64,000 bases of DNA from Bdellovibrionales bacterium. GTDB taxonomy: Bacteria > Bdellovibrionota > Bdellovibrionia > Bdellovibrionales > UBA840. The notes beneath the pieces were generated by a model that saw only the letters and a program-made list of their open reading frames with translations, was not told the origin of the DNA and ran no database searches. The stretch is taken from NCBI GenBank assembly GCA_045110695.1, contig JBGCGH010000043.1:12755-76754 (forward strand). Direction: 5' to 3'. The position numbers and the translations under genes were made by a program. Shown piece after piece: positions 4,472 to 29,991 of this stretch (positions are counted from its first letter, which is position 1; each line of letters opens with the position of its first letter).

Positions 4472-4482
4472 CTAGCAATAGT

Positions 4483-9663: not shown

Positions 9664-9675
9664 AGACTTAGTCCT

Positions 9676-10398
9676 CTAAAGTTGGAAGTTCTCACCTAAA
9701 TAGAATTTTTTAGCAACCTCTGAGTTTGCAATTTCCTCAGCTGTTCCCACTACTTGGATCTCCCCCTCCTTAAGTATATACGCATGATCACAAATACCCA
9801 AGGTTTCCCGGACATTATGATCGGTAATTAGTATTCCTATACCTTTGTTGGTGAGGTGCCGGATAATTTCCTGAATATCACCCACTGCTATGGGATCTAT
9901 ACCAGCGAAAGGCTCATCTAGAAGTAAAAATTTAGGATCACAGGCCAAAGCACGGGCAATCTCCACTCTGCGGCGCTCACCACCGGAGAGCATATAGCCA
10001 AAAGACTGGGCCTTATTGGACATTCCAAATTCATTCAATAGTTGCTCTTTTTTTTCCTGCTTTTGGGCGCCTTCATAGCCCTGACTCTCGAGAGCTACCA
10101 AAATATTATCTTCAACAGTCATTTTTCTAAAAATGCTAGCTTCTTGAGGCAAGTAGCCAACGCCGTTGCGGGCACGCTGGTACATCGGCATATCAGTAAT
10201 ATCTTTTTCATCCAATGAAACACTACCAGTGTCTGGCTTCACCAAGCCAACAACCATATAAAAAGAAGTTGTTTTTCCGGCACCGTTGGGACCCAATAAG
10301 CCCACAACTTGACCAGAGGAGATTTCAAAACTCACCCCCTTAACCACTTTTTTGGCTTTAAAACTTTTCCGTATCTCTTTTACTGCAAGAGTACTCAT
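9676..10398 (-). CDS. lptB: LPS export ABC transporter ATP-binding protein
   Basis: 240 aa. [36 protein letters not shown]. Conserved position directly upstream of rpoN. Confidence 0.9.
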
Positions 10399-11393
10399 AT
10401 ATCCCCATCAAGTAAGACTGGTTTTCCAGATTGTATATGGGCCTTGGCCCCTTCAACTTTTATCTTATCATCCTTGCCGGAGAAAGTAATACTCTCCCCC
10501 ACCAATTCATCCTTAGACTTTAACAGACGAGGCTTTCCCGTCATTACAATTTTATTGATTTTTGCATCAATACTGAGCTTTTCTGAAAAGGCTTGTTCGG
10601 TTTTTGATGTTAGCTCCACCCCTCCCAATAAATCAAAAGTATTCACTTCATTTTTCAGACGATCCATTTCCATTATCGCCTCAGCTCCTTTTATTAAATA
10701 TTTTTGATAGATTACTTTTACATTTTCGTTAAACCGGGCAATAGAGTTTCCACTTTGCTTGTCAAAAATTACAGAGTCGGAATTGATTTTCATTTTTTTT
10801 CCAAAATTAGAAATTTGCTCACTAGCAACTTCCCCTAGAACCTGAATTTGGTTTGTATTCAGGTTTGCATTCATTGTTTTACCCGTGACATTCATTATCT
10901 CTTTCGATTTACCTCTGTAGGATAGCCCGAGGGAGTCTTGAGCAACCAGGCTAGAACTTTCTGAAAAGTATTTTAAATCTTGAGTAGTAAACCGATAGCC
11001 ATCGGAGCTAACAACATCTACGCCACCAAAGAAGTGCATATCCTTATTATCAACATTAAATTTGGCGTAAACAGATTCAACTAGATAAGTTACTCCAGCT
11101 GCGGCAAAAAAAGTTACTTTAGATTGATTAAGTTTCCAAAGCTCAGCAGTCTTTAAGGACTCTGCACTTTCCGCGATCATGTCCCATCGCTTTACACCAT
11201 CTTCAGCCTCCACGAGCTTTACTCCCAACATTTTTTGTTCGGTATCACTCGATAGATCTGAAGAAGAAAAGAACTCCTCAGCGCTTCTCAACTCCAATTC
11301 CTCAGGACTCAAAAAACTAACCTGAACAAACAGTCCAATAGTTAGCAGCAGGGATATATAGTAAAATAGACTTCTCAATCTCTTTCCTCTCAA
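10395..11393 (-). CDS. LptC/LptA-like (OstA-fold) LPS transport protein, possibly a fusion
   Basis: 332 aa, TTG start, N-terminal TM anchor ([17 protein letters not shown]). The rest is beta-rich, and the C-terminal half resembles LptA (F.ENVKV....YLIKG..A....; G.V.L......A.S.KL..D....KIV.TG.P.L). Has a 4-nt overlap with lptB. It is the only lptC/lptA candidate at this locus. Confidence 0.55.
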
Positions 11394-12533: not shown

Positions 12534-12536
12534 AAC

Positions 12537-14039: not shown

Positions 14040-14162
14040 AAGGCCCTATATTTTAAATGGCTTACTCAATTCTACTACTTGTCTTGCAATCCGCTTACCA
14101 AGAGTTCCTTTCTATAAAATTCGCTAATGATAATCAACTCTAATCACCTAAGGAGGTGTTTC

Positions 14163-14315
14163 GTGGCATTTTTTATAAGAACAGGCTATAGTAGAAGGAA
14201 ATACATATACTATTTACCTGGTTCCATAAGCACGAGTTTGAGCTCCAAAAACTTAGCTTTTTGTATAGGGCTATGTAGAGGGTTTTCACCTCCTTTTCAA
14301 AGCTTAGATCATTGA
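14163..14315 (+). CDS. Possible small basic protein (50 aa); very uncertain
   Basis: Perfect SD AAGGAGGTG (14150-14158) lies 6 nt (from the GGAGG core, 14152-14156) before an in-frame GTG at 14163, within track ORF 14127..14315. The composition is not convincingly protein-like. Confidence 0.2.
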   Translation: MAFFIRTGYSRRKYIYYLPGSISTSLSSKNLAFCIGLCRGFSPPFQSLDH

Positions 14316-14478
14316 ATTATTTATATTGGCCAGCCCAAAATGGGCCCTCTTTTAGCTTTCTCCCACGTAGAAAACCCTCTGAAATTGGGCCAACAAGACG
14401 AAATTCTAGCGAGACTAGGCTTTGATCATCCGTTTTTATAAAATCTTAATTTTAATCTCTAAAAGCCGATACGTAAGT

Positions 14479-15177
14479 ATGGAATTAAAATGTTTTACTT
14501 TTGTAGATAATTTGGTGGAAGGTCCTTTTTCAAAAGAGGAACTCAATCATTATTTAGAATCGCATGAAAATGCTAAGCAGATACAAGTTTGGTGGAAAGG
14601 TCAAAAGCACTGGTCTTTTCCGAAAGCTTTTCTACTTCATGAGCCTGAAGAAAATGTATTTGATATTCGTAAAAGTAAAGCCATCTGGTTCGTTGAAAAA
14701 GAAGGAAAAGTCCAAGGCCCACTTATTAGAGATGAAATGTTACAAGCCTTGAAAGACTCTAAGAATCTAAGTCAGGTTAAAATTTGGCAAAAAGGACAGA
14801 AGAGCAAAGCGACCGTATATCAACACAACGACCTACAAGACTCTCTAGGGATTGTTCAAAGAAAGTCTTCTCGGGCCCCAATTGTTGGAGAAGTAGAAAT
14901 CAAGAAAGAAAAGGAAACCATTCATTCTAAAATCACCTCCATCTCTATGGGGGGCTTAGGTGTTGCTGACACTCCAGATCTGGTTCAAGGTGAAATATTA
15001 GATTTAAGAGTAACAAGTCCCCTTTTAACAATGGAATTTAGCTGTAAGGGACAAGTTCGTTACAATAGTAATACAAGAACAGGAATAGAATTTGATACAA
15101 TCAACGCTGAAGCCAAGGCTAGTATTATGGAATACGTAAAGCAATTTTCTATTGATGAAAAGAAGAAGGTTGCTTAA
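14479..15177 (+). CDS. GYF_2-GYF_2-PilZ domain protein (putative c-di-GMP receptor)
   Basis: Start moved to ATG 14479 (MELKCFTF...). Two GYF_2-like repeats: GPFSKEELNHYLESHENAKQIQVWWKGQKHWSF and GKVQGPLIRDEMLQALKDSKNLSQVKIWQKGQK. C-terminal PilZ motifs RKSSR...(D/N)xSxxG as ITSISMGGLGV. Confidence 0.75.
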   Translation: MELKCFTFVDNLVEGPFSKEELNHYLESHENAKQIQVWWKGQKHWSFPKAFLLHEPEENVFDIRKSKAIWFVEKEGKVQGPLIRDEMLQALKDSKNLSQVKIWQKGQKSKATVYQHNDLQDSLGIVQRKSSRAPIVGEVEIKKEKETIHSKITSISMGGLGVADTPDLVQGEILDLRVTSPLLTMEFSCKGQVRYNSNTRTGIEFDTINAEAKASIMEYVKQFSIDEKKKVA

Positions 15178-15180
15178 AAG

Positions 15181-15792
15181 CTAAAGCGAGGCCTGGTCCT
15201 CTATCTCTTCTTCTGCGTCTTTCTTAAATTTATTTTCGACCGTTACAACAGCAAAATTTATCTCAGAGGCACCCGCTTCCGTCAAAGTAAACATTAGTTT
15301 CTTAATCGTAAGGAAATCTATTGTCTTATCTGCCTGCAAAGTTACTCGCCTAAAATCCTTATCAAATTTGTCGGTATCTTGAACTTCTGCAACGACTTCC
15401 TTCAAGCGACTCGAGGTTCGGTTTATAAAGCGAGTTTCCTCAGCCTCAACCACAGATTTAAAAAACTGAAATAGTGGATAAACAAGCCATTGTTGCTGGT
15501 TTTTAACCGAGCTTAACGGAATCACTTGATTGTCGTTTAGAAAAATCATATCTTTCGACACTATTACTACGTTAGCAGGGTTGAGTTCTCGAATTTGAGT
15601 CGCTTTGGGTAGCTGAACATCGTTTCTTAGCCTAATCACTTCGCCGGTTTCTTTATAGTTCTGAAGTAGAAAGATTGTTAGAACTGTAAACATATCAACC
15701 ATAGCCGTAAGAGAAAGCATGACCACAGAGTTGCGCTTAGCGGGCTTAGCTTTTCCTCTTCTGTTTCTGATACCTGGTACATGAATTGGCAT
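15181..15792 (-). CDS. ExbD/TolR family proton-channel subunit (AglQ/AglS-like)
   Basis: 203 aa. Basic N-terminus, then a single TM helix with the conserved Asp (LTAMVDMFTVLTIFLL). Last gene of the operon. Confidence 0.8.
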   Translation of the reverse strand: MPIHVPGIRNRRGKAKPAKRNSVVMLSLTAMVDMFTVLTIFLLQNYKETGEVIRLRNDVQLPKATQIRELNPANVVIVSKDMIFLNDNQVIPLSSVKNQQQWLVYPLFQFFKSVVEAEETRFINRTSSRLKEVVAEVQDTDKFDKDFRRVTLQADKTIDFLTIKKLMFTLTEAGASEINFAVVTVENKFKKDAEEEIEDQASL

Positions 15793-15801
15793 TATCAGTC
15801 C

Positions 15802-16263
15802 TTACTGTGTTGCGACAGCAACTTCGGGGAAGCCTGCGTTAAGAATCGCATCCATCCCTTCAATCATGTCATTATATTCCAAATTATCCTGTAAAGAAAT
15901 TGTAGCACTGGAATTCTCTGGAAATCTCTGCTTAATTTGAACTAGCTGGTTGTAAAGCTCCATCTTGTTAAAATTACCTTCTAATTTGGGTATTTGAAAA
16001 CTAGAGTTTTGAAGCTTAACTATGTAACCAGTATTTGTGAGTCGGATCTGTAAGAAAATATCTTCTACTTTTTTAATATTCTGAGAATCATTCCCCGTGT
16101 TCTTTCCATAAATAGAACTACCTAACTCAATCATTGAAACCTGGGTCCAAACTGCTGTTACAAGCAGAAATATGATACAAACACTCATCAAGTCGATGAA
16201 AGGAACCAAGTTTGGTTCTACATTAGTCTGTCTTCCCTCTGATGGTCCATCTATTTGAGCCAC
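15802..16263 (-). CDS. ExbD/TolR family proton-channel subunit (AglQ/AglS-like)
   Basis: 153 aa. LVPFIDLMSVCIIFLL TM helix with Asp. Confidence 0.8.
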   Translation of the reverse strand: MAQIDGPSEGRQTNVEPNLVPFIDLMSVCIIFLLVTAVWTQVSMIELGSSIYGKNTGNDSQNIKKVEDIFLQIRLTNTGYIVKLQNSSFQIPKLEGNFNKMELYNQLVQIKQRFPENSSATISLQDNLEYNDMIEGMDAILNAGFPEVAVATQ

Positions 16264-16273
16264 TAATACCTAC

Positions 16274-16936
16274 TTATGATTTAAGTTTATCACGGTTACT
16301 TACAACTAGATTCATGATCTTCATACTCGTTTCTTGCATATCATTTATCGCTTTACCAATTCTTAGCTGGTAGAAGCCATAGGCAAGTAGAGCTGGAATT
16401 GCCACTGCAAGTCCCGCTGCTGTACAGTTAAGTGCGTGCGATATACCTTGCGATAAAAGTTCAGCTTTCTGAGCAGCATCAGCCTGAGAAACAGCCGAGA
16501 AACCAATGATCAAACCAATCACTGTACCCAGTAAGCCTATCAGAGTGGCCACGTTACCAGAAACCGCTAGCATAGGCGTTAGGCCTTCGAGCCTAGGAGT
16601 TTCCTCTAATACAGCTCCATCTAAAGCGACTTGCACTTCTTCGTCAGGTCTTCTATTTAAAACCTGCTTTAAACCCTCTTTTACCGTGTTAGGTAAGGGA
16701 GCATTTTTATCTTCACAAATCATTATAGCTTCGCGAATATTTCCGTTCAGAATCTGCGGAAATACCTTTGATACAAAATCGTCTTTATCAACTATGAGTC
16801 GATGTAGAGCTATGAATCTTTCAATAATTAAGAAGACCGTTAGTAAACCTGTTAAAGCGATGAAATACATTGCTGTACCACCATCATTAAAGGCTTTAAT
16901 TAACCAATGAACTTGTTCCACACTTACCGGTTCCAC
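16274..16936 (-). CDS. MotA/TolQ/ExbB family proton channel (AglR-like)
   Basis: 220 aa, 3 TM helices. C-terminal GLLGTVIGLI...AL..TA.GL.VAIPAL..Y motif typical of TolQ/ExbB. Confidence 0.85.
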   Translation of the reverse strand: MEPVSVEQVHWLIKAFNDGGTAMYFIALTGLLTVFLIIERFIALHRLIVDKDDFVSKVFPQILNGNIREAIMICEDKNAPLPNTVKEGLKQVLNRRPDEEVQVALDGAVLEETPRLEGLTPMLAVSGNVATLIGLLGTVIGLIIGFSAVSQADAAQKAELLSQGISHALNCTAAGLAVAIPALLAYGFYQLRIGKAINDMQETSMKIMNLVVSNRDKLKS

Positions 16937-16951
16937 TGCAATCCTCCTTGA

Positions 16952-19126
16952 CTACCTTGCCGAGAAAGCGAAAGGGAAAGAGATTTTTGCTTCCGCACCC
17001 TGAGGTGGTTCTGGAAATCTCCATGTCTTAAGCCTTCTTATTAAACATTTTTCTATATTCTTGTTATTAATGGTACTTTTTTCTACTTTAGCACTACCAA
17101 CCCGCCCTTTAGCCCTAATAGTAAAGCCAATCGTTACTTTACCGGATAGGTTAAAATTTCGGTTCAATTCAGCATCATAACAGGCTTTAATTGCAGCCTT
17201 TTGATTTAAAATAACTCTTCGAACAGCCTCTCTGTCTATGTCTCCGAGGAATTCCTCTCCCTGTCCGCCGATATCGATTCCGGTTTTACCCTTCTGACCT
17301 AAGTTACCATCACCGTATTCATCTAAACCTGAGCCTTTACCTTTGGTATTAATATCAGTTCGTCCATAAGTCTCAGTTCCCTTGCCACCTGCTGATACTT
17401 CTTTGAGACCACTGGAGTTGTTACTTCCACCACGGCCACCACCAGCGCCAGTGACCTTTTGAGAGGCCCCACGAGTAGCGTTTGCACCCTTAGTTAATTT
17501 CGCTACTTTTTGTTGAGTTCCGCTATTTGCAAAAACCCCCAGTAGACCTGAGCTTTCAATATTAGGTTTTTTCTTCGTTTCATCTCCCTGCTTTTTCTTT
17601 GGCTTTCCTTTAAAACGACTAGGCTTCTTTGCCCCCCGTCCTTTTTTAGCAGCAGTGGTTTTCATTTTTTCTCGAATAGGATTTTTTGCACGCTTCACAG
17701 CTGCGGCCTTACCCGGATTACCCTTCGCTTTTTTAGGAGTTTTTTGATCCACCCTCGATGGACTTTTAACTATTCGTGATTTTCGAGCCTGTGTATTTTG
17801 TTTCACAGGTGCCGGTGGTTTCTCTGGGCGATTAAAAATAAAGGTAGTTACCTTTTTCTGTTTCTCTTCGAGCTCCGGTTCATCTAAATCTTTATAGATT
17901 GTGGCGACAGTATATAGAATCAAAGAAAGAGCCACTGCTAGAACAAATACCATCAGCTCATGAGGCTTCAAACCACTCAATGGACCTAAAAATAGATCTG
18001 CCGATTCTTTAGTATTAGAAATATAAAGACTAAGACCGCTTTCTAAGTCGAGTCTGAGCATTTCACCTTGCTGTAGCTCCAGAACAAAAAAAGCACCATT
18101 AGGATTGAGCCTTCCTTGCCTAGACGCTTCCTCTAGACTGATGGAATCAGATTTATTAATAAACAGCCGTCCCCTTTTTTCTTTAGGAACGATGATCTGA
18201 GAAACAGACTGGAAATTTCTGAGTAATAGTTGGGAGCTTGGTATACTATCGATATTTGGAATAACGACTTCGTTCTTAGGATGGGAACCAAACTTAACAT
18301 CTCCCTCGTTTTGTATTCGATAAGTTTCTAATACCCTATCTCCCCAAGATAATAATATTTCAAGCCCAACACCTTTTTTAGGAGTCAGTATACTGTCTAA
18401 ATCTTCATAGGAGCTTTCAGGAGCGAATGTAACTTTTTTCCTTGGAACCATTCCTATTAGATTATCGGGGCCCGGCCTCTCTTCCACTTTATCTTTTGGA
18501 GGAGTGACTGTTGCTTCAACCATCCTATCATCATCTAAACTAGATGCAGAGACTGAGCTAACTTCGCTTGGCTCTTTAGAAGTAGGTACTTCAATAGGTA
18601 TTTGAACATTTGTGACAATAGTTTTTTCGTCCTGTACTTTATCTACTGAGCCTTCTGCAGTATCCGCTTCGACTTCTTGCTCAACAGCTGGAACTTTTGG
18701 TATTTCTGGAATCTTAATATCTGGAATACTGGGCACTGGTTCAGGTTTTTTTGTAATCTCAGGAACAGTTGCTGGTACTGGAGGTACAGCAGTTTTTACT
18801 GAGATTGCCTCTGGTTGGAATGCCTTTGGAATACCAACGTGGAATTCAATTAGCGTTTCGCCAAGACGTATATTATCTCCTGTTTGAATAGGATGATCCA
18901 GAACAATTTCATTGTTTAGAAAGGTGCCTTGCTCAGACCCTAAATCGCAAAGGTAAAAATCACTTCCTCTTTTTTCAATCATTGCATGGATATTAGAGAT
19001 AGCTACATCATCTAGATTTAAATCCACATCTGCATTTCGTCCAATTACAAATTGATCCTTATTCACTTGTTTAACTTGAGCTACTTTGCCATCAATAACG
19101 ACACGTAAAAATATTGGAGTGCTCAT
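16952..19126 (-). CDS. FHA domain / single-TM / TonB_C-like (AgmX-GltG-type) protein
   Basis: 724 aa. N-terminal FHA (FVIGRNADVDLNLDDVAISNIHAMIEKRGSDFYLCDLGSEQGTFLNN), Pro/Glu-rich linker, TM LMVFVLAVALSLILYTVATIY, Lys-rich and Gly-rich low-complexity region. The C-terminal domain of about 90 aa (IKACYDAELNRN..LSGKVTIGFTI...G.V..A.V..S......IE.C...R.L..W.FP.P) resembles TonB_C / the AgmX C-terminal domain. Confidence 0.7.
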   Translation of the reverse strand: MSTPIFLRVVIDGKVAQVKQVNKDQFVIGRNADVDLNLDDVAISNIHAMIEKRGSDFYLCDLGSEQGTFLNNEIVLDHPIQTGDNIRLGETLIEFHVGIPKAFQPEAISVKTAVPPVPATVPEITKKPEPVPSIPDIKIPEIPKVPAVEQEVEADTAEGSVDKVQDEKTIVTNVQIPIEVPTSKEPSEVSSVSASSLDDDRMVEATVTPPKDKVEERPGPDNLIGMVPRKKVTFAPESSYEDLDSILTPKKGVGLEILLSWGDRVLETYRIQNEGDVKFGSHPKNEVVIPNIDSIPSSQLLLRNFQSVSQIIVPKEKRGRLFINKSDSISLEEASRQGRLNPNGAFFVLELQQGEMLRLDLESGLSLYISNTKESADLFLGPLSGLKPHELMVFVLAVALSLILYTVATIYKDLDEPELEEKQKKVTTFIFNRPEKPPAPVKQNTQARKSRIVKSPSRVDQKTPKKAKGNPGKAAAVKRAKNPIREKMKTTAAKKGRGAKKPSRFKGKPKKKQGDETKKKPNIESSGLLGVFANSGTQQKVAKLTKGANATRGASQKVTGAGGGRGGSNNSSGLKEVSAGGKGTETYGRTDINTKGKGSGLDEYGDGNLGQKGKTGIDIGGQGEEFLGDIDREAVRRVILNQKAAIKACYDAELNRNFNLSGKVTIGFTIRAKGRVGSAKVEKSTINNKNIEKCLIRRLKTWRFPEPPQGAEAKISFPFAFSAR

Positions 19127-19380
19127 TTATCAAAATCTCCTAATTCAAGCTTCTTCCCAGTACTTTCCATTTCGGGAATAAAGTCTTCTCTAAGTTGTAA
19201 CATTCGATTGAAGTTGAATCGTTTTCTTTGCAAAAGATAAAATAGCTCAGGTTTTTGAATATCACCCTGAACCAGTTCATCCTCAAAATCTATCTCAATA
19301 ACACGCTTCCCTTTTTGGTTTTGTGCCAAAGTAGTCTCACTAAAAAGTAAAAAAAGCATTAAGGGTAATAGCCACTTCAT
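19123..19380 (-). CDS. Small secreted protein (positionally equivalent to gltF)
   Basis: 85 aa, signal peptide MKWLLPLMLFLLFSETTLA. Has 4-nt overlaps with both neighbours. Confidence 0.45.
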   Translation of the reverse strand: MKWLLPLMLFLLFSETTLAQNQKGKRVIEIDFEDELVQGDIQKPELFYLLQRKRFNFNRMLQLREDFIPEMESTGKKLELGDFDK

Positions 19381-20243
19381 TTACCACCTCCAGTAGGAAC
19401 TTTGGATTTCAAGCTTGAAATACGCGCCCTTAAATTTCTAATTTGATTACGATATTTGGCATCAGAATTTATCGCCTCGATACGAATCAGCTCAGACTCT
19501 GCAGATCGATAGTCTTTTGCATCGACATAGGCTCGTACTAAATTTATTCCTATATTTACAAGCCTATCTGATTTTGAATAAGCTTGCTTAAGAAAATTAA
19601 CTGCTTTTTTTGCCTGACCATTCATGGCTAGACTCACTCCGTAGTTGTTAATTAAAGTAAAATCTTTGTCGTCAATATTTCTAATAAGCTCTAGAGAAAC
19701 TAAGGCTGATTTGTAGTTATTGTACTTTAAATACAATTTCGATAAGTTATGTAGAGCCACTAAATTGCTTCTGTTTTTAGCTACGGATTGTTTGAGAGTT
19801 TTTATAGCCTGAGAATCATCACCTTCAATTTGATCAAGGATCGCCAAATTATTAAGGACGGCACTTGAGTTCTCAGCTGACTTAGATGCTTTTTCCCAGA
19901 ATATCCTAGATATACCATATTTTTTTTCTTTGTAGGCTGCCATTCCTAATGCAAAGTTAGCAGAATAATTTTGTGGCTCTCGTTCTAGAATTATAGAAGA
20001 TAGCCTACGGATTTCACGGCGATTGTTTTTTAAAACGGCTGCCTTAAGCTTTTCCTCTAGACTTGGTTTATTATAGGTAAATTGTTGCTCTTCTTTCTCA
20101 AGTATTTCTTTACTTGATCGCTTATCGTTTACCGGAGAATCCGTTTTAGAATCTGTTGTTTTTTTATCACCGCTGGAACAAGCTTGAAGTAGAGCCAAGG
20201 TAAGTATCAATAGATTACTTTTCAACATCGAAACCTCCCACAT
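19377..20243 (-). CDS. TPR-repeat lipoprotein (GltE-like)
   Basis: Lipobox LTLALLQAC. The likely true start is the Met at 20228. Multiple TPR-like A..YN.G......G....A repeats. Confidence 0.65.
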   Translation of the reverse strand: MWEVSMLKSNLLILTLALLQACSSGDKKTTDSKTDSPVNDKRSSKEILEKEEQQFTYNKPSLEEKLKAAVLKNNRREIRRLSSIILEREPQNYSANFALGMAAYKEKKYGISRIFWEKASKSAENSSAVLNNLAILDQIEGDDSQAIKTLKQSVAKNRSNLVALHNLSKLYLKYNNYKSALVSLELIRNIDDKDFTLINNYGVSLAMNGQAKKAVNFLKQAYSKSDRLVNIGINLVRAYVDAKDYRSAESELIRIEAINSDAKYRNQIRNLRARISSLKSKVPTGGGK

Positions 20244-23200
20244 CTAAGCGCAACCATTTCACAAACTTATCCTCTTTGTATCTTTCTGGATAAATCTGAG
20301 TTAATTCTTTGTATACCGATTTAGTGTCGCTGTTGTAGACATCTAACTCATAAGATCGACGGATTGCCGTTTCATAGTTTTCATTTGCTGTTTGAATCAT
20401 TGGATTGGCAATCTGACCAATTCTAGATTTATATTCAGCTACTTGATCTTTTTGAATTGCTTTGGGAATTGGGGCAGCGAGTATCGCTTTTCCGAGGTGT
20501 CTATAGGCTCTACCCGCCCACACCAAGGCCTTTACGATTTGATCTCCCGAGTTTAAAGAAATTATTTGACCATATTCTTTATTCAAAGCATCCAGAAGTT
20601 GGATCTTTTTCTGAACTACTTGAGCCTGCTTTTGAGGATTTGCAGGTATTTTTAGGCCTACGAATTCGTTATACTTGCGCCTGCTGAGTTCAAATCGGGA
20701 CTGAGCGATAAAATATTTATTTTTTGCATTTTTATAAGTAAATGCCGATTTTCGATACCACTTTAAAGCATCTTTTTCGTTTCTAAAACTATCTGCCAGC
20801 TGTCCTAATTCAAATGCGGCTTCGCTAGCTTTATTTAGGTCATAGATAGTTCCACCGAGAAAGAGTTTATAGAATTTAATCGCCTGACGTCGCTTCTTAT
20901 TTTTTTGGTACATTTTGGCTAGTTCAAATTGTGCATTCTTTTTTTCCTGTCCTCTTGAGATTGCTGCCAAAGCTGCATAGCTATAGATCGCCTTAGAATA
21001 GTTATTCGTACCTCGATAGATTACAGCGCTGTTAAAATAAAGATTTTTTCTAATTTTGTCCTTTTTGTATGTATCGGCATACCTTAAAAATAGTCCGGCC
21101 GCTTTTTCTAAATCACCTATTTTCTCGTATAAGTTTGCCTGAAGTAATATTGATTTTTTCCTAATTTCCGGATTAAGCTTGTTAGTGTTGTTTATAGCTT
21201 GTTGATACAAACCGATAGCCTCAAGCACCTTTCCAGATCTCTCGTAGTTTACGGCTGCATTGTATTGAGCCACTGGAACCAAGGAACTTTTTCCATACTT
21301 TTTAGCAAATGCTAAGAAGCTAATCGCCGCTTTTAAATACTCACCTTTTTTCTCATAATCTTGCCCCTGATTAAAGGCGGCTTTCTCAACAATATTTCTA
21401 ATATCGTTAGTTAAGTTTTTATTCGCCTTGAAGCCAGGTGTTAATAGAAGCTCGTTTCCAACTTTTGCCATACCGCTAAAGTCTTGTTTTATATTGTATA
21501 TATCAAGCAACAAATTTGCAGAATACTCTGCATACTTAGACTTAGGCGCTGAACGAACAATAGCTTTAAATAGGGTCTCTGCCTCAACAAAACGATTGTA
21601 CTCATAATATACTCTAGCCAATCTAAATCGAACCTCAATACTCTCACTTGAGTTTGGAAACAACTTGATATGATCCGTTGCCGCATTAACAAACCTTTTT
21701 GTTTCAGAAGACATATTCACTGGTTGATCAGATTTAGACTTCTTCTTTGGCGATTGAGGAAGAATTTGTTCCATAGAAATGAGTCTGTTTAAACTTGCTT
21801 TTCTAGTAAATTTCCCCGTTTTACCGCCTGTTTTAATAGACCCGGCGTACATATTTGCAGCCTTGGAAAACTGATCTTTATCAAACATCAATTCCCCAAA
21901 ATAGAAATATAGTTCATGGGCAAATCTACCGTTAGGAAAATATCTAAAGTAAAGGTTATAACCAAATTTCGCCTCATCAAAGGATGTACTAGATCTGGTG
22001 TTTTCATGAATTTGATGCCATTTCAATGAGTGGATTCTTAGGATTTTCTCTCTGTCGAAATTCGCATCCTGCACCACGGAACCATCTGTCTTATTTTGCG
22101 CATACCACTGAGAGTTTTCAGAAAAATCTTTTAGCCAGCGAACAAGCTCCCTTTTAAAAGACTGCTTTGCTCCAGCATTGGAGTAGTTGAGTACAATTTG
22201 CTTTTGGTACTGATAAGATTTTTTAGCTGATGGATCCTTAGCGATCAAACTCTTAAATATACTATCAGCAGATCTATATTTACCTTGATTTGAGTATGTA
22301 TAGGCTAAGTTTTCAAGCATCTGAGTATAAGATTTGCCACCCAACCTTCTAAAGAAACTCTCAGCCTTTGCTGGATCTCCTCCATAGGAATAGAACATTA
22401 CAATATCTCTCAATCCCTCAGTGGCAAGTCGGATTCTAGCCCCACCACCTTGCTCTTGTTCTTTTTTAGCTCGAACAATAAGTCTCGCCAATCTTTTCAC
22501 TGATTCTTTATGGTTCCCCATTCTGTAGGCACACCATGCACTCTTATACATGGCAAAACTGTAGAGCTTAGCATCTCTACTTTTTAGTACTCGGATATAA
22601 AGGTCGTAGGCTTTTTTCCAATCGTCTCGTTCAAAATGGTACTCTGCCAAGGCAAAATTAGCTTCAACAACAAATGGGGATTTAGGGTAGTTTTTAATCA
22701 ATTTTGTGTATGTAGACTTTCCCTGCTTAATCTGACCTAATTCAAATTGAATATAGCCAACGAAAAACAAAGCTTGGTCGATTCGACTGTCTTTTGGAAA
22801 ATCTTTGATAAACCAACTATAAAGCTGTGTTGCTCGTTTATAGTAGTCTTTCACAGGTTTAAGATTTAATTTTGGCCTTCTCTTTCTTTTACTTTTGGAT
22901 TTTTCGTAAGCCTGGATTCTTCTATCGTAATCACTAAATATCCGCTGTTCCACTAGACGGGCTTTTTCTACATAAAGCTCACCCTGGCGCAACCAAAGCT
23001 CTCCTCTTCTTTCACTTTTTTGATACTTTTTGATCAGCCTAAAAAGCCTCTCTATACCATCATCAACAACAGCCTCAAGTTTTGCCACTTTATCGGCACT
23101 TTGACGCTGCAAAATTTTAGCTGAAGGCGGTTTTATTTTAGATAAATCCCTTGAGGTCGCTTCATTTTGAACTTTTGTAGACTTGGTGTTAAAATTTAAT

Positions 23201-23331
23201 TTTGTCTTAGTCTTTTTAGATTTACCGATATTTTTTATATAATCACCAATCGTTTTTTGATTCTGAGCCTGAAGACTAGAACCTAAAAACAATCCTGATA
23301 GTAAAAATAATGTTATCGCTATATTTCTCAT
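20215..23331 (-). CDS. Large periplasmic TPR-repeat protein (GltD/AgmU-like)
   Basis: 1038 aa, signal peptide, TPR-like repeats throughout (repeated ALF.LG..Y...G.Y..A...F pattern). Confidence 0.65.
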   Translation of the reverse strand: MRNIAITLFLLSGLFLGSSLQAQNQKTIGDYIKNIGKSKKTKTKLNFNTKSTKVQNEATSRDLSKIKPPSAKILQRQSADKVAKLEAVVDDGIERLFRLIKKYQKSERRGELWLRQGELYVEKARLVEQRIFSDYDRRIQAYEKSKSKRKRRPKLNLKPVKDYYKRATQLYSWFIKDFPKDSRIDQALFFVGYIQFELGQIKQGKSTYTKLIKNYPKSPFVVEANFALAEYHFERDDWKKAYDLYIRVLKSRDAKLYSFAMYKSAWCAYRMGNHKESVKRLARLIVRAKKEQEQGGGARIRLATEGLRDIVMFYSYGGDPAKAESFFRRLGGKSYTQMLENLAYTYSNQGKYRSADSIFKSLIAKDPSAKKSYQYQKQIVLNYSNAGAKQSFKRELVRWLKDFSENSQWYAQNKTDGSVVQDANFDREKILRIHSLKWHQIHENTRSSTSFDEAKFGYNLYFRYFPNGRFAHELYFYFGELMFDKDQFSKAANMYAGSIKTGGKTGKFTRKASLNRLISMEQILPQSPKKKSKSDQPVNMSSETKRFVNAATDHIKLFPNSSESIEVRFRLARVYYEYNRFVEAETLFKAIVRSAPKSKYAEYSANLLLDIYNIKQDFSGMAKVGNELLLTPGFKANKNLTNDIRNIVEKAAFNQGQDYEKKGEYLKAAISFLAFAKKYGKSSLVPVAQYNAAVNYERSGKVLEAIGLYQQAINNTNKLNPEIRKKSILLQANLYEKIGDLEKAAGLFLRYADTYKKDKIRKNLYFNSAVIYRGTNNYSKAIYSYAALAAISRGQEKKNAQFELAKMYQKNKKRRQAIKFYKLFLGGTIYDLNKASEAAFELGQLADSFRNEKDALKWYRKSAFTYKNAKNKYFIAQSRFELSRRKYNEFVGLKIPANPQKQAQVVQKKIQLLDALNKEYGQIISLNSGDQIVKALVWAGRAYRHLGKAILAAPIPKAIQKDQVAEYKSRIGQIANPMIQTANENYETAIRRSYELDVYNSDTKSVYKELTQIYPERYKEDKFVKWLRLDVGGFDVEK

Positions 23332-23338
23332 CTACTTC

Positions 23339-24949
23339 CTATTTACAGCTACTCTTGCCGAGGTAGTGATAGTTACCTATTTCATCCAACCAATATTCCC
23401 CAAGATATGGCCAATACTCGTAGCCATTCTGGATATAAAAATCTCTGTCTGCATTATTATCTATAGTTTGCTCTTGGCCTGAAAGAATTTGAGCACGAAG
23501 AGTATCTTTTTGAGAGTTGGCCAACTCAAATCTAGCAAATTCTTCTTGTTCTTCGATTCTTACGACTTCTTTGTAGTACTTAACCAAATAACCCCTGACA
23601 GATAAGCCAAGTCTTCTTTTAGCTGCCTTAATTCTCTTCTCTAAAAGCCGAGACAAATTCTTACCTACTCTAGAATTTTGCCATTCTGGCGATAGTTCAC
23701 TTAATCGGTCTTTTTCAGAGACTAATTTAAAAACGTAGCTAACACCACTTTGAACATCACCTTGGTTATAGATATTTTTATATATCATCGTTGGTAAACG
23801 ATACTTTTTAGAGTCTATTTCCTGACTAAAATTCTCATAATCATTATAAAACACACTGAAATCGTTATATATTTTATTCGACCTTGGCTTCGATTTTAGA
23901 TAAGACCGAATGTCTTTAGCTACTGGAATATATATACTTTTAAATAAATCCAAAGTTTTTGCCATTTCATCGTATTTACAAATATAAAGGTAAACTATAC
24001 CCCTCAATAATAAGGATTCCGGTAAGAAATCATTTCTATAGTAGTCAGAGTGAAGTGTGTGGAAATTACTAAGTACGGATCTAAACTTTCCGGTCCTAAG
24101 CTGAGCCCAAGACATTTCAAAAAGCCCCTCATGCCAAGCTTCGGAATCCCTTGGGACTTGTCTATAGTATTCAACCGCTTTATCCCACATATTTGCCTGG
24201 TAATAAGACCTTGCCAGCCCTAAAACAGCCGCAACTCGGTTATCATTTGTAACCGGAGCGTCTTTATAGCTTTCGAGAAGGTTTTGAAACTTTCTAACTG
24301 CCAATCTGGGTTTTCCAATTTTTGCTGATATATACGCAGACTTATACTTAGCCCTGGCATAAAACGCGCTACTAGAACGAATCATCTCATAGTACTTTAC
24401 AGCATTGGAATAGTCTTTTTTACGTTCGTACACTTCAGCGATTCTAAATCTTAAAAGATCCCACCTAGATTTAGGGAATTTCTTAATCTCAACCTTTGAA
24501 AGCGCATAGTTTAGTAACCGACTATCTTCAAGATAACTCGCAGATATCACAAGTTTTTCTAGAGCCCGATTTATGTATTTACTATTGCCGAGCTGGATGG
24601 TTCCAACAAACTGATAAGAGGCTCCTTGGTAGAGCTTCATTTCATAAAGCATCAAGCCAAGTAAATATTTGATTTGAGGGCGCTCTTTTCGAAATAGCTT
24701 GTCCTTACTTAATCTATATAAAACCTTAGTTGCTTGCTCATAGTTTCTTGCTCTTGCAAGACGAAGAGCAAAGGACATTTCACGGGCTTTATTTCTTTTG
24801 TAACGGCTTTTACGTTTTTTTCTCTTCTTTGATTTAGATTTTTTAACATTGCTCGTTTTTTTCTGAGCATAGACATTGTCAATACCACCTACTGTAGCGA
24901 CACCGAAACCTAGAAACATGGAGAGTATGATCATTGCGATTTTAATCAT
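23339..24949 (-). CDS. TPR-repeat periplasmic protein (GltC-like)
   Basis: 536 aa. Signal peptide, Lys/Arg-rich stretch (KKSKSKKRKKRKSRYKRNK), then TPR-like repeats. Confidence 0.6.
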   Translation of the reverse strand: MIKIAMIILSMFLGFGVATVGGIDNVYAQKKTSNVKKSKSKKRKKRKSRYKRNKAREMSFALRLARARNYEQATKVLYRLSKDKLFRKERPQIKYLLGLMLYEMKLYQGASYQFVGTIQLGNSKYINRALEKLVISASYLEDSRLLNYALSKVEIKKFPKSRWDLLRFRIAEVYERKKDYSNAVKYYEMIRSSSAFYARAKYKSAYISAKIGKPRLAVRKFQNLLESYKDAPVTNDNRVAAVLGLARSYYQANMWDKAVEYYRQVPRDSEAWHEGLFEMSWAQLRTGKFRSVLSNFHTLHSDYYRNDFLPESLLLRGIVYLYICKYDEMAKTLDLFKSIYIPVAKDIRSYLKSKPRSNKIYNDFSVFYNDYENFSQEIDSKKYRLPTMIYKNIYNQGDVQSGVSYVFKLVSEKDRLSELSPEWQNSRVGKNLSRLLEKRIKAAKRRLGLSVRGYLVKYYKEVVRIEEQEEFARFELANSQKDTLRAQILSGQEQTIDNNADRDFYIQNGYEYWPYLGEYWLDEIGNYHYLGKSSCK

Positions 24950-25707
24950 CTGTAGTCAACCTCCGGAAAAAAGAAGCTCGCGCCAAAAGTTAAATGTATA
25001 TTCGTATTGAGTGACTCAGTGCTGTCTTTTGGAGTGGCGTTATACCAAAAGAAGCTAGTGTCCCATCGGATAGTTAAAGACTTGCTAAGAGCAAAGTGCT
25101 GACCAAAACCAAAATGTGCCGTGGGGGCCGACTCACCAGAGGAAGTGTTTGTGCTCCCCGCACCAAAAGTCAGGTAGGTTTCAAATGGAATAATGGAATC
25201 TTCAAAAAATGCCATTTTCCCGTAGACAGGAGTATATTTGGCATCGATCCCATAGAAAGATTCAGGAGTAACTGCCAAATCAGAGTCTACACCCCTATCT
25301 TGTAAATCGTTTGTAACTTTCTTATTGGATACTGAAGAAGAGAAGGCATTTAGCTCTAATCCCCATTTTTCTGTAAAATAATAACCGGCACGGAAACTAA
25401 GTATCTGGTTTACAAAAAAGGAATCATTTAAAATAACGCCAATGTTGGGAAAAAGTTCGAATCGTTCTGTTTTTGAAAGATACTTCCTCTGAATCATAGC
25501 TACATTTTTAAACGGTGAAAGAAACCTTAATCCAGATACATCTTCTATCTTCAAATCTTTAAGGTTAAACTCTCCTTCTCTTTTCTCATCTGCACTATCT
25601 TCCGCCTCATAAAGGAAGTCATCCACACCTGAATCTTCCGATCCTTGCTGAGCAAAAAGTGGCAACGTAAATGCTATACCTAAAATTGTAATCCATTTTA
25701 AAAACAT
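24946..25707 (-). CDS. Outer-membrane beta-barrel-like protein (GltA/GltB-like size class)
   Basis: 253 aa. Signal peptide, alternating hydrophobic beta-strand pattern, aromatic-rich C-terminus (GASFFFPEVDYR). 4-nt overlap with the downstream TPR gene. Confidence 0.5.
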   Translation of the reverse strand: MFLKWITILGIAFTLPLFAQQGSEDSGVDDFLYEAEDSADEKREGEFNLKDLKIEDVSGLRFLSPFKNVAMIQRKYLSKTERFELFPNIGVILNDSFFVNQILSFRAGYYFTEKWGLELNAFSSSVSNKKVTNDLQDRGVDSDLAVTPESFYGIDAKYTPVYGKMAFFEDSIIPFETYLTFGAGSTNTSSGESAPTAHFGFGQHFALSKSLTIRWDTSFFWYNATPKDSTESLNTNIHLTFGASFFFPEVDYR

Positions 25708-25876
25708 TTCATCCGTCCAATGGTAGAATATCTCTACTATAGACTACCGAATAAGGTGGGAAGAAAGTAGCAAGTGAAGGCTTTTTAGACTTTGATCTAT
25801 GAGGTTTTTCTTAGAATAAACAAGTATTTAGCTTTGTATTTTAGATTGTATTGGACAACTTAGCTTCAACTAAAGC

Positions 25877-26620
25877 CTATAAGAATGGAAAGAAAGAAAA
25901 CACACCGAACATTAAAGTCATATTAAAGAAATTTTCATCCTCAAAGGGTGGAGTGTTGACCGTAGAAGCCCCCAGAAAGTCTGGGAAAATATAATTTTGA
26001 ATTCGTAAATCTAGATTAAGACCCCAATTGGGACTGAAATAGAATTTTTGTATAACTCCAGCCTGTAGATAGGTCGCGCTTTCACCACCATAAGTAATGG
26101 AACCCAGACCAAGGATAGTGGAAGTGGATAGATTATATACCCCTTGCTTGGTAATACTAATTTTCCCGTAGTAAGGGGTGTATTCCCAATTTAATGCGGC
26201 ATAACTCTCAAGCAGTGGTACGTTATCCCAGTCACCAATGTTGATTGGTGGTCCTGAAATTTGGTCCTGAAAATTATTTCCTGAGGAAATGTAAGAACCA
26301 TAATCCACTGATACAGCGTGAACTTCATTAAGGTGGTAACTAAAATGCAATCGAAGGAGGTTATTATCAAAAAATGCATCGTTCAGTGTCGAACCTAGTG
26401 CAAATCCAACTTCTCCACGATTTTCTTTCACCACGTTTCTTTTTCGTAAAACTTTTTTCACTCTAAACACTGGCAATACGGTCTCTGTAGCCAATTCTTT
26501 TTTATTAATTTTAATTGTTTTCTGTTTCTTCTCTTCTGAAAAAGCGCCAAGAGCGAATACACTACAGATAGAAAAAACAATAAGAGGTTTGATTTTATTA
26601 AACACTAGAGCTCCCGTCAC
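25877..26620 (-). CDS. Outer-membrane beta-barrel-like protein (GltA/GltB-like size class)
   Basis: 247 aa, paralogous in pattern to 24946..25707 (YTP.YGK...., ...FG.G...). C-terminus FGVFSFFPFL. GTG start overlaps the end of kdsC (an alternative GTG lies at 26605). Confidence 0.5.
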   Translation of the reverse strand: MTGALVFNKIKPLIVFSICSVFALGAFSEEKKQKTIKINKKELATETVLPVFRVKKVLRKRNVVKENRGEVGFALGSTLNDAFFDNNLLRLHFSYHLNEVHAVSVDYGSYISSGNNFQDQISGPPINIGDWDNVPLLESYAALNWEYTPYYGKISITKQGVYNLSTSTILGLGSITYGGESATYLQAGVIQKFYFSPNWGLNLDLRIQNYIFPDFLGASTVNTPPFEDENFFNMTLMFGVFSFFPFL

Positions 26621-27101
26621 TGTACTTTAATAGATAATCACATATCTCCCGTACAGCACCTTTTCCACCTTCTCGCTTTGTAATGTAGCTGGCTTTTTCC
26701 AAAGCTTCATCAATAGCACCCGGTACAGTAACCGCAAAACCTACACGAGAAAAAAGCTCAACGTCATAAATATCATCGCCAACATAAGCAATCTGGTCAG
26801 CTCTCAAGTCCGTTTTTTCTACAAAGTCATCAAGAGCAATCGTTTTATCAACAATGCCATTATAAAAATGCTCGATTCCTAAGAATTCGACTCTCTCCGT
26901 TACATCTCGTGATTTAGCACCAGTAATTACACCTATGATAAAGCCTTTTTTCTGAAGTAATTTAATGCCGACGCCGTCTCTTACATTATAGCGGCGAACC
27001 CATTCACCACTCTCTGTCCATTGGACACAAGCATCTGTTAGCACGCCATCTACGTCTAACACCAAGGCCTTAATATTTTTTAATTTTGCGATTTCTAACA
27101 T
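26598..27101 (-). CDS. kdsC: 3-deoxy-D-manno-octulosonate 8-phosphate phosphatase (HAD)
   Basis: 167 aa. LVLDVDGVLTD, GV.ITG..S..V..R...LGI, VGDD..D motifs. Lies downstream of kdsD. Confidence 0.85.
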   Translation of the reverse strand: MLEIAKLKNIKALVLDVDGVLTDACVQWTESGEWVRRYNVRDGVGIKLLQKKGFIIGVITGAKSRDVTERVEFLGIEHFYNGIVDKTIALDDFVEKTDLRADQIAYVGDDIYDVELFSRVGFAVTVPGAIDEALEKASYITKREGGKGAVREICDYLLKYSDGSSSV

Positions 27102-27245
27102 AACTACTCTCCATTCTGCCTTTTTTTCAGCCCTGAGTCCCTTTGAATTACCAATCTCACTACCTTAGTCATAGTGAGATCTAAATCAAAACCTTTGCTT
27201 TATCTAATGTAACTTTTAATATCAGGATCAAAGTCTGTGGGCTAC

Positions 27246-28229
27246 CTACTTAATTTTGGCTCTCAACAGATCCTGAAGGTGAATTATGCCAATAGGCTGA
27301 ATTCTAGAGTCATTTTCTTCAACAACAAATAGAGTTTGAATTTGAAACTGCTCCATTAAGAACAATGCTTTTTGGGCCATTTCTTCAGGATGTATAGTTT
27401 TAGGTTTGCTCGACATTAAACTTCTTACCTCAACATCCAGAGGAGACTCTGCTTTTTCCAAGCTACGCCTGATGTCACCATCGGTAACAATACCTAACAA
27501 CTCATTATTATCCCCAACAATCCCAGCGACTCCTCGGACGTCTTTACCCGTCATCCGAGTAATTACCTCTCTAAGAACATCATGAGGCCTAACCAATGGG
27601 AGACTCTCGCCGGTATGCATGACATCCCTTACTCTTGTTAAAAGCTTCCTTCCCAAGGATCCACCGGGATGATACTCGGCATAGTCCTTTTCCTTAAAAC
27701 CTCTTGCTGAAAGAGTTGCCATGGCAAGGGCATCTCCTAAAGCTAAACTAACAGTAGTACTTGTAGTTGGAGCTAAGCCCATAGGACAGGCTTCTTCATC
27801 CACAGAAATATCCAAGATCACTTGGCTTGCAGAGCCTAACTGCGAATCAGGCTTACTGGTCATTCCTATTAAAGGAATATTTTTTCGTTGCACATACGCG
27901 ATCATATCGTTGAGCTCAACTGAATTTCCGCCATTACTAATCATAACAACAACATCTGCTTTAGTGATAATTCCCATATCACCATGACTTGCCTCGGCAG
28001 GATGAACATACAAACTGGGAGTTCCAGTGGAGGCCAAAGTCGAAGAGATTTTTTTTGCAATATGACCCGACTTTCCAATTCCACTAAAAACAACTCTACC
28101 CTCGGTGTCTAAAAGTAGTTTCACCGCCTTCTCAAAATTAGTATCTAATCGCTCTTTCAATTTTAAAATAGCTGCCGCTTCAATATCTAGTACTTTACTA
28201 GCAACTTTTAGTATCTCGCTCATAACCAT
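27246..28229 (-). CDS. kdsD: Arabinose-5-phosphate isomerase (SIS + tandem CBS)
   Basis: 327 aa. SIS motif GIGKSGHIAKKISSTLASTGTPS and a C-terminal CBS pair. Confidence 0.9.
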   Translation of the reverse strand: MVMSEILKVASKVLDIEAAAILKLKERLDTNFEKAVKLLLDTEGRVVFSGIGKSGHIAKKISSTLASTGTPSLYVHPAEASHGDMGIITKADVVVMISNGGNSVELNDMIAYVQRKNIPLIGMTSKPDSQLGSASQVILDISVDEEACPMGLAPTTSTTVSLALGDALAMATLSARGFKEKDYAEYHPGGSLGRKLLTRVRDVMHTGESLPLVRPHDVLREVITRMTGKDVRGVAGIVGDNNELLGIVTDGDIRRSLEKAESPLDVEVRSLMSSKPKTIHPEEMAQKALFLMEQFQIQTLFVVEENDSRIQPIGIIHLQDLLRAKIK

Positions 28230-28233
28230 ATTC

Positions 28234-29991
<1,758 letters not shown>

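Follow-up and report, generated by a model that had tools for sequence, protein, structure and literature searches.

Ten adjacent genes in a 64,000-nucleotide stretch of a Bdellovibrionales genome (GenBank assembly GCA_045110695.1, contig JBGCGH010000043.1, positions 12,755 to 76,754; hereafter the window) resemble the Agl-Glt machinery known from gliding in Myxococcus xanthus. We listed the open reading frames (ORFs) over 12-30 kb of the window with their translations and found exactly ten co-directional minus-strand frames at 15181-26620, bearing out an earlier, sequence-only reading of this DNA that had described ten genes joined by overlapping or 4-nucleotide (nt) junctions. In gene order they encode proteins of 247, 253, 536, 1038, 288, 85, 724, 220, 153, and 203 amino acids (aa) (Table 1). 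Adjacent genes overlap by 4 nt at junctions 24946/24949, 19377/19380, and 19123/19126 and by 29 nt at 20215/20243 if the longest ORF is used; the remaining intergenic gaps measure 7 to 15 nt, except for 169 nt between the two genes for outer membrane (OM) barrels. Pfam searches assigned TPR repeats to the 536-, 1038-, and 288-aa proteins; the 724-aa protein matched FHA and, weakly, TonB_C, the 220-aa protein matched MotA_ExbB, and the 153- and 203-aa proteins matched ExbD. The domain content given in the sequence-only reading (two barrels, now assigned to OMP_myx_plus, TPR proteins, a protein combining FHA, a transmembrane [TM] segment, and a TonB_C-like end, one MotA_ExbB protein, and two ExbD proteins) was thus recovered in full.

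A scan for sigma-70 promoters and terminators across 11000-28500 yielded no convincing internal terminator; promoter-like sites were rarer there than in shuffled sequences, and the scan is uninformative on operon boundaries. Rfam gave no match in or near the cluster and hence no riboswitch in the 169-nt gap or upstream.

TABLE 1 Features of the Agl-Glt locus and its flanks in the window
Feature	Coordinates	Strand	Remarks
rpoN	8203-9663		After lptB
lptB	9676-10398		After lptC/A
Fused LptC-LptA protein	10395..11393	-	Downstream flank; LptC and LptD_N/LptA domains
GYF-GYF-PilZ protein gene	14422..15177	+	Convergent; end 4 nt from aglS stop
AglS-type long TolR/ExbD-like subunit, 203 aa	15181..15792	-	Ortholog of Bd0838 (196 aa); PF02472 E 1.1e-7
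AglQ-type TolR/ExbD-like subunit, 153 aa	15802..16263	-	Ortholog of Bd0837 (158 aa); PF02472 E 1.3e-15
AglR-type TolQ/ExbB/MotA-family proton-channel subunit, 220 aa	16274..16936	-	Ortholog of Bd0836 (221 aa); PF01618 E 2.5e-27
GltG-like inner-membrane force transducer, 724 aa	16952..19126	-	Ortholog of Bd0834 (707 aa)
GltF/CglF-like small secreted protein, 85 aa	19123..19380	-	NF033764 and position
GltE/AgmT-like TPR lipoprotein, 288 aa	19377..20243	-	Ortholog of Bd0833 (281 aa)
GltD/AgmU-like large periplasmic TPR scaffold, 1038 aa	20215..23331	-	Ortholog of Bd0832 (1066 aa)
GltC-like periplasmic TPR protein, 536 aa	23339..24949	-	Ortholog of Bd0831 (529 aa)
Second GltA/GltB-family OM beta-barrel, 253 aa	24946..25707	-	Ortholog of Bd0829 (266 aa)
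GltA/GltB-family OM beta-barrel, 247 aa	25877..26620	-	Ortholog of Bd0828 (240 aa); N-terminal signal peptide
kdsC, KDO-8-phosphate phosphatase, HAD family	26598..27101	-	Upstream flank; HAD hydrolase Pfam matches; 54% identity to Bd0827

We tested the Glt identities with NCBIfam models built on Myxococcus gliding proteins and compared each protein with the Bdellovibrio bacteriovorus locus (L027, CP020946.1) reached through its AgmU homolog. Both barrels exceed the 60-bit cutoff of TIGR04565 OMP_myx_plus (82.5 bits for the 247-aa and 110.3 bits for the 253-aa protein, the latter with a weak Pfam OMP_b-brl match as well); a pair of GltA/GltB-type barrels is present, and the model does not tell GltA from GltB. 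The best match of the first is the 240-aa B. bacteriovorus gene (79 bits), and the second is 41% identical over its full length to the 266-aa gene. The first barrel gene most likely starts at GTG 26605, which is preceded by GGGAG, so that it overlaps the kdsC stop codon at 26598-26600. The 536-aa protein matches NF033756 gliding_GltC (179 bits, E 1.5e-52; residues 51-535 against model positions 114-619 of 622) and is 43% identical to the 529-aa B. bacteriovorus gene. The 288-aa protein matches NF033758 gliding_GltE with an E value of 3e-10 (39.6 bits, cutoff 225), carries the lipobox LLQAC, the Cys of which is kept in most orthologs, and shows 27% full-length identity to the 281-aa gene.

Over 95% of its length, the 1038-aa protein shares approximately 36% identity with proteins of B. 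bacteriovorus that go under the name "adventurous gliding motility protein U" (AgmU, which is GltD). Its AlphaFold2 model is an all-alpha TPR solenoid (mean pLDDT 84) with a disordered N terminus (residues 1-56), matching the solenoid and disordered N terminus described for M. xanthus GltD, and it carries YbgF/CpoB-like repeats (TIGR02795, 102 bits, cutoff 90). The 85-aa protein matches NF033764 gliding_CglF (E 3e-10, 39.9 bits, cutoff 90), CglF being the same protein as GltF (PMC4488436). The motif FEDELxxG...KPELxYLLQKKxFNFxxLIxLRExFxPEM was found, with some substitutions, in 20 aligned orthologs, and the protein is 53% identical to a 95-aa B. bacteriovorus gene at the equivalent position (14090-14377 of L027). 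This small gene has no entry for the Bd0828-0838 locus in Table S3 of Luciano et al. 2011 (PMC3169522); because it sits between the consecutive tags Bd0833 and Bd0834, it is probably unannotated in strain HD100. The GltC, GltE, and GltF/CglF models are the best or sole specific named matches of the 536-, 288-, and 85-aa proteins.

The 724-aa protein aligns almost end to end with NF033760 gliding_GltG (233 bits, E 8e-69; residues 1-723 against model positions 1-647 of 650). It also scores 108 bits against NF033768, the AgmX/PglI C-terminal domain (cutoff 40), and 32 bits against TIGR01352 tonB_Cterm (cutoff 27), and its FHA domain (Pfam E 1.6e-17) was confirmed as an FHA fold against the PDB. 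In its AlphaFold2 model, residues 1-100, 250-372, and 615-723 are folded and residues 388-412 form a TM helix, giving a cytoplasmic FHA domain, a second beta-rich domain, the TM helix, a disordered periplasmic linker of approximately 200 residues rich in Lys, Pro, and Gly, and an alpha/beta, TonB-C-like AgmX/PglI C-terminal domain. This reproduces the FHA/second beta-domain/TM helix/disordered linker/TonB C-terminal domain architecture of M. xanthus GltG (PMC11761067). A PDB fold search with the whole model returned FHA domains only; the nearest solved structures to the C-terminal domain are the TonB C-terminal domains 5lw8 and 6sly, both weak matches. Among GltG orthologs we found no conserved His of the TonB/TolA type in the TM helix, the His of the window protein not being conserved, and in most orthologs the cytoplasmic end of the helix (residues 380-412 region) bears a loosely conserved motif of the (S/T)xxE type with an acidic residue. 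Two Cys residues in the periplasmic C-terminal domain (649 and 694) are invariant and probably form a disulfide. Profile comparison with the M. xanthus Glt proteins, to which the sequence-only reading had likened this gene order, therefore matched GltC, GltE, GltF/CglF, GltG, and the GltA/GltB family, with GltC, GltE, GltF, and GltG below their equivalog cutoffs.

The three remaining genes encode one TolQ-like and two distinct TolR-like proteins. The scores of this trio fall far below the equivalog cutoffs of the classical families (TolQ, 74 versus 221 bits; ExbB, 53 versus 206; ExbD, 21 versus 153; and TolR, 38 and 19.5 for the two TolR-like proteins versus 127), and no AglR, AglQ, or AglS match was obtained from NCBIfam models at E values up to 10. 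The residues expected of a proton-driven motor are conserved: the GT of TM2 and the T of TM3 in the AglR-like protein (TolQ-type threonines) are invariant in 20 genomes, and the TM Asp is invariant in 19 genomes both in the AglQ-type subunit (motif FIDLMSV) and in the AglS-type subunit (motif MVDMFTV). In pairwise comparisons the 220-aa protein scored 239 bits against Bd0836, 169 against an Anaeromyxobacteraceae protein, 55 against Escherichia coli TolQ, 48 against ExbB, and 25 against MotA, with identities of 54% to the Bd0836 type, 44% to the Anaeromyxobacteraceae aglR type, and 30% to E. coli TolQ. Among solved structures, the protein is nearest to TolQ, closer than to ExbB.

A full-library search with this protein returned 14,450 relatives, 39 of them at E <= 1e-30, with the Bdellovibrionota orthologs collapsed to two representatives; the next group, at 42-44% identity, includes the Anaeromyxobacteraceae protein. 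Among the best 10 named matches, the nearest relative outside Bdellovibrionota belongs to a stand-alone Anaeromyxobacteraceae unit, MotA_ExbB(230)-ExbD(163)-ExbD(190), the layout and lengths of which are those listed for aglR-aglQ-aglS of Anaeromyxobacter by Luciano et al. 2011 (PMC3169522). The window's two TolR-like proteins sort cleanly between the two subunits of this unit: the 153-aa protein scores 69 bits against the 163-aa subunit and 32 against the 190-aa subunit, and for the 203-aa protein the scores are 75 bits with the 190-aa subunit and 15 with the 163-aa subunit. Since the short and long proteins each match their own counterpart, the AglQ/AglS duplication is older than the split of the two phyla, and the R-Q-S assignments hold. 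Published trees likewise place Bd0836-0838 nearest to aglRQS (Luciano et al. 2011, PMC3169522). The AglR-AglQ-AglS-type motor proposed in the sequence-only reading, with one TolQ-like and two TolR-like subunits, is accordingly upheld, by the TM Asp of both TolR-like subunits and by the reciprocity with Anaeromyxobacteraceae.

That reading had also offered an alternative, a TonB-ExbB-ExbD1-ExbD2 system energizing uptake across the OM with accessory TPR proteins. NCBI indeed names the 724-aa product "TonB family protein," and the protein passes tonB_Cterm, but it carries two cytoplasmic FHA-type domains, aligns over its whole length with the GltG model, and lacks a conserved TonB/TolA-type His in its TM helix. 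The order of one TonB-like, one ExbB-like, and two ExbD-like genes resembles that of tonB-exbB-exbD1-exbD2 operons, yet the ExbB and ExbD equivalog cutoffs are not reached, the locus and the window encode no TonB-dependent receptor, and the OM proteins are small barrels of ~160 residues. We consider energized uptake very improbable. Preference for the Glt/Agl assignment over TonB-ExbBD is supported instead by the matches to Myxococcus models, the missed TolQ, ExbB, TolR, and ExbD cutoffs, the Anaeromyxobacteraceae unit, and orthology to B. bacteriovorus Bd0828-0838.

To place the cluster among its relatives, we scanned genome contigs with a profile from a nine-sequence GltG alignment, with narrow patterns that picked up neither B. 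bacteriovorus nor Myxococcus. The scan returned 24 loci, all from Bdellovibrionota/Oligoflexia metagenome-assembled genomes. BLAST of the window proteins against the ORFs of these loci showed that 13 have the full set of ten in the window's order and three more have nine of the ten; shorter related contigs hold the corresponding part of the cluster. Recurrence of the ten-gene order in 13 independent genomes excludes chance. Four other loci (L020 and L022-L024) were rejected as relatives; they have the FHA domain alone in common with the cluster.

The B. bacteriovorus locus reads kdsC(167)-240-266-529-1066-281-95-707-221-158-196-LptC/A(338)-LptB(240)-RpoN(480), in amino acids. These lengths are exactly those listed by Luciano et al. 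for Bd0828/0829/0831/0832/0833/0834/0836/0837/0838; Bd0827 is kdsC and Bd0843 is rpoN. For every window protein, a single full-length best match was obtained in this locus, at 27-54% identity. Given the matching order, lengths, and flanks and the one-to-one matches, the window cluster is the positional ortholog of Bd0828-Bd0838. The sequence-only reading had implied that a one-locus arrangement was new, in view of the three loci of Myxococcus; this did not hold, as the single-locus arrangement in Bdellovibrio was published in 2010-2011 (PMC2797640; PMC3169522).

A related Agl-Glt cluster also occurs at 78-11762 of a 2.94-Mb contig (L025, ENA ERZ26694896), with an AglR 60% identical to that of the window. 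In it the GltD region is split or rearranged (805 plus 428 aa), GltG has 962 aa, and the downstream region is without lpt genes; it represents the cluster in relocated or paralogous form in a different lineage.

The cluster occupies a constant genomic position. The window order is kdsB-pyrG-kdsD-kdsC, the ten genes, a convergent PilZ gene, two genes without a family match, and lptC/A-lptB-rpoN-hpf. The E. coli counterpart of this array is kdsD-kdsC-lptC-lptA-lptB-rpoN, so that the Agl-Glt block falls precisely at the kdsC|lptC junction; it does so in the window, in 14-16 other Bdellovibrionota genomes, and in B. bacteriovorus. Immediately upstream of the block is kdsC in 14 related loci, with gaps of -49 to +3 nt when starts are projected from the alignment. 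Downstream, lptC/A is found in 16 loci, five of which have it within 100 nt of aglS. This spacing suggests that the cluster may be co-transcribed with the lipopolysaccharide (LPS) genes. Its fixed place in the kds-lpt-rpoN array across many Bdellovibrionota lineages marks this paralog, in the lineages sampled, as an old one inherited vertically. In the literature searched, we found no paper linking Bdellovibrio, kdsC or lptC, and gliding; the kdsC-lptC position and the convergent GYF-GYF-PilZ gene appear to have gone unremarked so far. As a separate observation, LptC and LptA appear to be fused in one protein of ~335 aa (LptC, then LptA/LptD_N), as they do in B. bacteriovorus (18388-19404 of L027) and in related metagenome-assembled genomes.

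An LPS-linked position invites the reading that the cluster is a Tol-Pal-like envelope-maintenance machine, in which the motor and YbgF-like TPR proteins aid OM or LPS assembly or integrity and predation defects are secondary to a damaged envelope. The block between kdsC and lptC/A in the window, its relatives, and B. bacteriovorus fits this, as do the abutting or overlapping of kdsC by the first gene, the short aglS-lptC/A distance in five genomes, and, in HD100, expression that rises in host-independent growth and not in early predation (PMC2797640). The structural affinity of AglR to TolQ over ExbB points the same way, but the scores stay far under the TolQ and TolR equivalog cutoffs; the GltD-like protein has repeats above the YbgF/CpoB-type TIGR02795 cutoff, but the best named match of every non-motor protein is a Glt protein. 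Neither the locus nor the window yielded TolB or Pal, and transposon mutants of nine cluster genes in B. bacteriovorus are viable axenically and lost on prey only (PMC6561027). We therefore judge this reading improbable. Neither AglRQS paralogs nor a tol-pal operon was seen elsewhere in the window or in the fetched loci.

The convergent gene next to aglS encodes a GYF-GYF-PilZ protein, with PilZ (44.5 bits) and GYF_2 (33 bits) matches that are both above cutoff and a true start that is likely the Met at ORF residue 20. It recurs at the equivalent position in seven fetched genomes (L001, L009, L010, L011, L015, L019, and L021) and not in B. bacteriovorus, and the motifs RxxxRAP and SxGGxG are present in nearly all eight sequences. 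Myxococcus GltJ recruits AglZ through a GYF domain. Bd0836, the B. bacteriovorus AglR, was a match in a cyclic di-GMP capture screen (PMC6561027). It is possible that the GYF-GYF-PilZ protein acts as a cyclic di-GMP-responsive regulator or adaptor of the Agl-Glt machine. Between this gene and lptC/A, two minus-strand genes at 11589-14039 encode proteins of 500 aa (about four hydrophobic segments) and 314 aa (a likely signal peptide). Significant Pfam or NCBIfam matches are absent for both, as are counterparts in the related loci, and the pair looks like a lineage-specific insertion.

The B. bacteriovorus ortholog has been studied in several contexts. Lambert et al. 2010 (PMC2797640) described four "tonB-like/agl" operons in HD100, of which Bd0828-0838 was upregulated in host-independent growth. 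Luciano et al. 2011 (PMC3169522) reported that Bd0828-0838 contains AglRQS plus GltA-G, closest to M. xanthus aglRQS and glt, considered it the best candidate for the Bdellovibrio gliding apparatus, and proposed that a bearer of AglRQS plus GltA-G is a potential glider. Using transposon sequencing in a host-independent 109J strain, Duncan et al. 2019 (PMC6561027) found that all nine annotated Bd0828-0838 genes are needed for predation. Predation fitness (W) was 0.002-0.047 on planktonic Vibrio cholerae for the nine genes; in the validation pool, with V. cholerae and E. coli as planktonic cells or as biofilm, it was <=0.017. Mutants in the nine genes were recovered in axenic growth and selectively lost on prey only, and an aglS (Bd0838) mutant was defective in attaching to, killing, and rounding prey. 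Among the supplementary-table rows covered, which are part of the full transposon sequencing table, none of six genes looked for from the other three HD100 clusters appears, an absence that is suggestive only.

What we establish here is the content and order of the genes, their domain architecture, the conserved motor residues, and the orthology to Bd0828-0838. Together these indicate that the product of the ten genes is very probably a trans-envelope machine of the Agl-Glt type, which Luciano et al. 2011 termed the "expanded core complex," orthologous to Bd0828-Bd0838. Membership in the Agl-Glt family is well supported; a physiological role as a gliding engine is putative. By homology with the M. 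xanthus system, from which all subunit contacts are drawn, an AglR pentamer with an AglQ/AglS heterodimer would form a proton channel in the inner membrane, where proton flow at the conserved TM aspartates would drive conformational work. That work would be handed to the single TM helix of GltG, whose long disordered linker would span the periplasm and couple to a TPR scaffold of GltD, the lipoprotein GltE, and GltC. The TonB-C-like domain of GltG may bind GltD, with GltE sitting on GltD; the small GltF would bridge GltG, GltD, and GltC; and GltC would dock beneath the GltA/GltB barrel pair in the OM. On the cytoplasmic side, the FHA domain of GltG could serve as an input or scaffolding site. 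The output would be surface gliding, force-dependent prey contact and invasion, or both.

Several points weigh against this interpretation. GltC (179 versus 450 bits), GltE (40 versus 225), GltF (40 versus 90), and GltG (233 versus 650) all score below their equivalog cutoffs, and we therefore regard these proteins as divergent relatives and not as Myxococcus equivalogs. No GltD model in NCBIfam matches the 1038-aa protein at E values up to 10; its putative GltD identity draws on similarity to B. bacteriovorus AgmU, position, and architecture. GltH, GltI, GltJ, GltK, CglB, and AglZ, all needed for Myxococcus gliding, were not found among the window ORFs with Pfam and NCBIfam, so that the "complete" machine of the sequence-only reading stands for the AglRQS plus GltA-G set and not for these components. 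GltH-K are likewise missing from B. bacteriovorus (Luciano et al. 2011, PMC3169522). A neighbor-joining tree of AglR was unstable: its point estimate nested E. coli TolQ within the ingroup, and 86 of 100 bootstraps left it outside. The pairwise scores favor the AglR type over TolQ or ExbB. Motor typing accordingly relies on pairwise scores, subunit-by-subunit reciprocity, and gene context and not on this tree. In HD100, the two genes reported as surface-induced are bd1480, from another agl/glt cluster, and bd3099 (Lowry et al. 2022); according to a 2026 review, the machinery behind Bdellovibrio gliding "remains unidentified" (PMC13104615); and the demonstrated phenotype of the ortholog is lost predation in shaken liquid culture, not lost gliding (PMC6561027). 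Finally, the source is an uncultured metagenome-assembled genome, known here from genes alone.

A more tentative proposal, which we think on balance unlikely, concerns the place of this cluster among the paralogous Agl-Glt clusters of Bdellovibrionota. In every related genome with sequence available for the flank it is embedded between kdsC and lptC, its first gene overlapping or abutting kdsC when starts are projected from the alignment. This paralog may be not a surface-gliding engine but a distinct machine, inherited across at least the sampled lineages and co-expressed with LPS assembly, whose output would be force-dependent prey contact or invasion, or the handling of the predator's own OM, tuned in some lineages by the GYF-GYF-PilZ protein. 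If true, this would explain why each B. bacteriovorus cluster gene is needed for predation in liquid culture and why the surface-induced gliding genes lie elsewhere.

A last possibility is that the motor, like the Nfs system, moves a surface polysaccharide or coat around the cell and not the cell itself. Glt-like paralogs of Myxococcus have diverged to non-motility roles, such as Nfs with AglRQS on spores (PMC3169522), but we saw no cue of a spore or cyst program. The neighboring genes do concern surface glycolipid, but beyond housekeeping KDO and Lpt functions the locus has no polysaccharide synthesis or export genes, and the ortholog's phenotype is in prey attachment (PMC6561027). An Agl-Nfs-like polymer-handling machine seems to us highly improbable, and an Agl-Glt machine orthologous to Bd0828-Bd0838 remains the preferred reading.

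For the window alone, the result is an upgrade of annotation, with the conserved LPS-operon position as a lead. The division of labor among Agl-Glt sets in predatory bacteria is listed as open in the 2026 review (PMC13104615), and as published transposon sequencing found that predation requires this paralog, studying it first would be a rational way to approach that question.

Elsewhere in the window, an IS110/IS116-family transposase gene (31963-32982, minus strand) lies a few kilobases upstream of the kdsB-pyrG-kdsD-kdsC array. At ~34000-36000 gene orientation switches from nearly all minus to the left to plus to the right, GC skew changes sign in the same interval, and the cumulative skew is lowest near 34 kb. 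The switch may mark a divergence point resembling a replication origin, or the skew could simply track the coding strand; no dnaA was seen.

Compared with the Ton system (ExbB-ExbD-TonB), the motor superfamily of the cluster is the same, and the C-terminal domain of the transducer passes a TonB model and weakly matches TonB C-terminal domain structures, whereas the window has no TonB-dependent receptor, its motor proteins fall below the ExbB/ExbD cutoffs, and the transducer has no conserved TM His. Like Tol-Pal (TolQ-TolR-TolA-TolB-Pal-CpoB), it combines a 5:2-type TolQ/TolR-like motor, a periplasm-spanning transducer anchored in the inner membrane with a TonB/TolA-like C-terminal domain, and YbgF/CpoB-like TPRs; unlike Tol-Pal, it has no TolB or Pal, two different TolR-like subunits in place of one, and cytoplasmic FHA domains on the transducer. 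The Group B "core complex" (aglRQS with gltC/D/E/G in one operon, found in Gammaproteobacteria, Geobacter, and Fibrobacter; PMC3169522) has the same single-locus linkage of motor, GltG, and TPR proteins, to which the window adds the Group A genes gltA, gltB, and gltF. Luciano et al. 2011 (PMC3169522) found these three in Myxococcales and Bdellovibrionales only and tied them to the gliding-capable version. The Agl-Glt system of M. xanthus (the bacterial focal adhesion complex) has in common with the window homologs of AglR/Q/S, including two TolR-like subunits with a TM Asp, and of GltA/B, GltC, GltE, GltF, and GltG, together with a putative GltD; in M. xanthus the genes lie at three loci (G1, G2, and M1), whereas the window holds one, and the window's GltD-like protein is not a lipoprotein, unlike M. 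xanthus GltD. Closest is Bd0828-Bd0838 of B. bacteriovorus. At this site B. bacteriovorus has no GYF-GYF-PilZ gene, none of the window's two lineage-specific genes in the aglS-lptC/A interval, and no kdsB-pyrG-kdsD next to kdsC on its upstream side, and identities of 27-54% mark a different lineage; the ten genes, their order, their near-identical lengths, and the kdsC and lptC/A-lptB-rpoN flanks are common to both.

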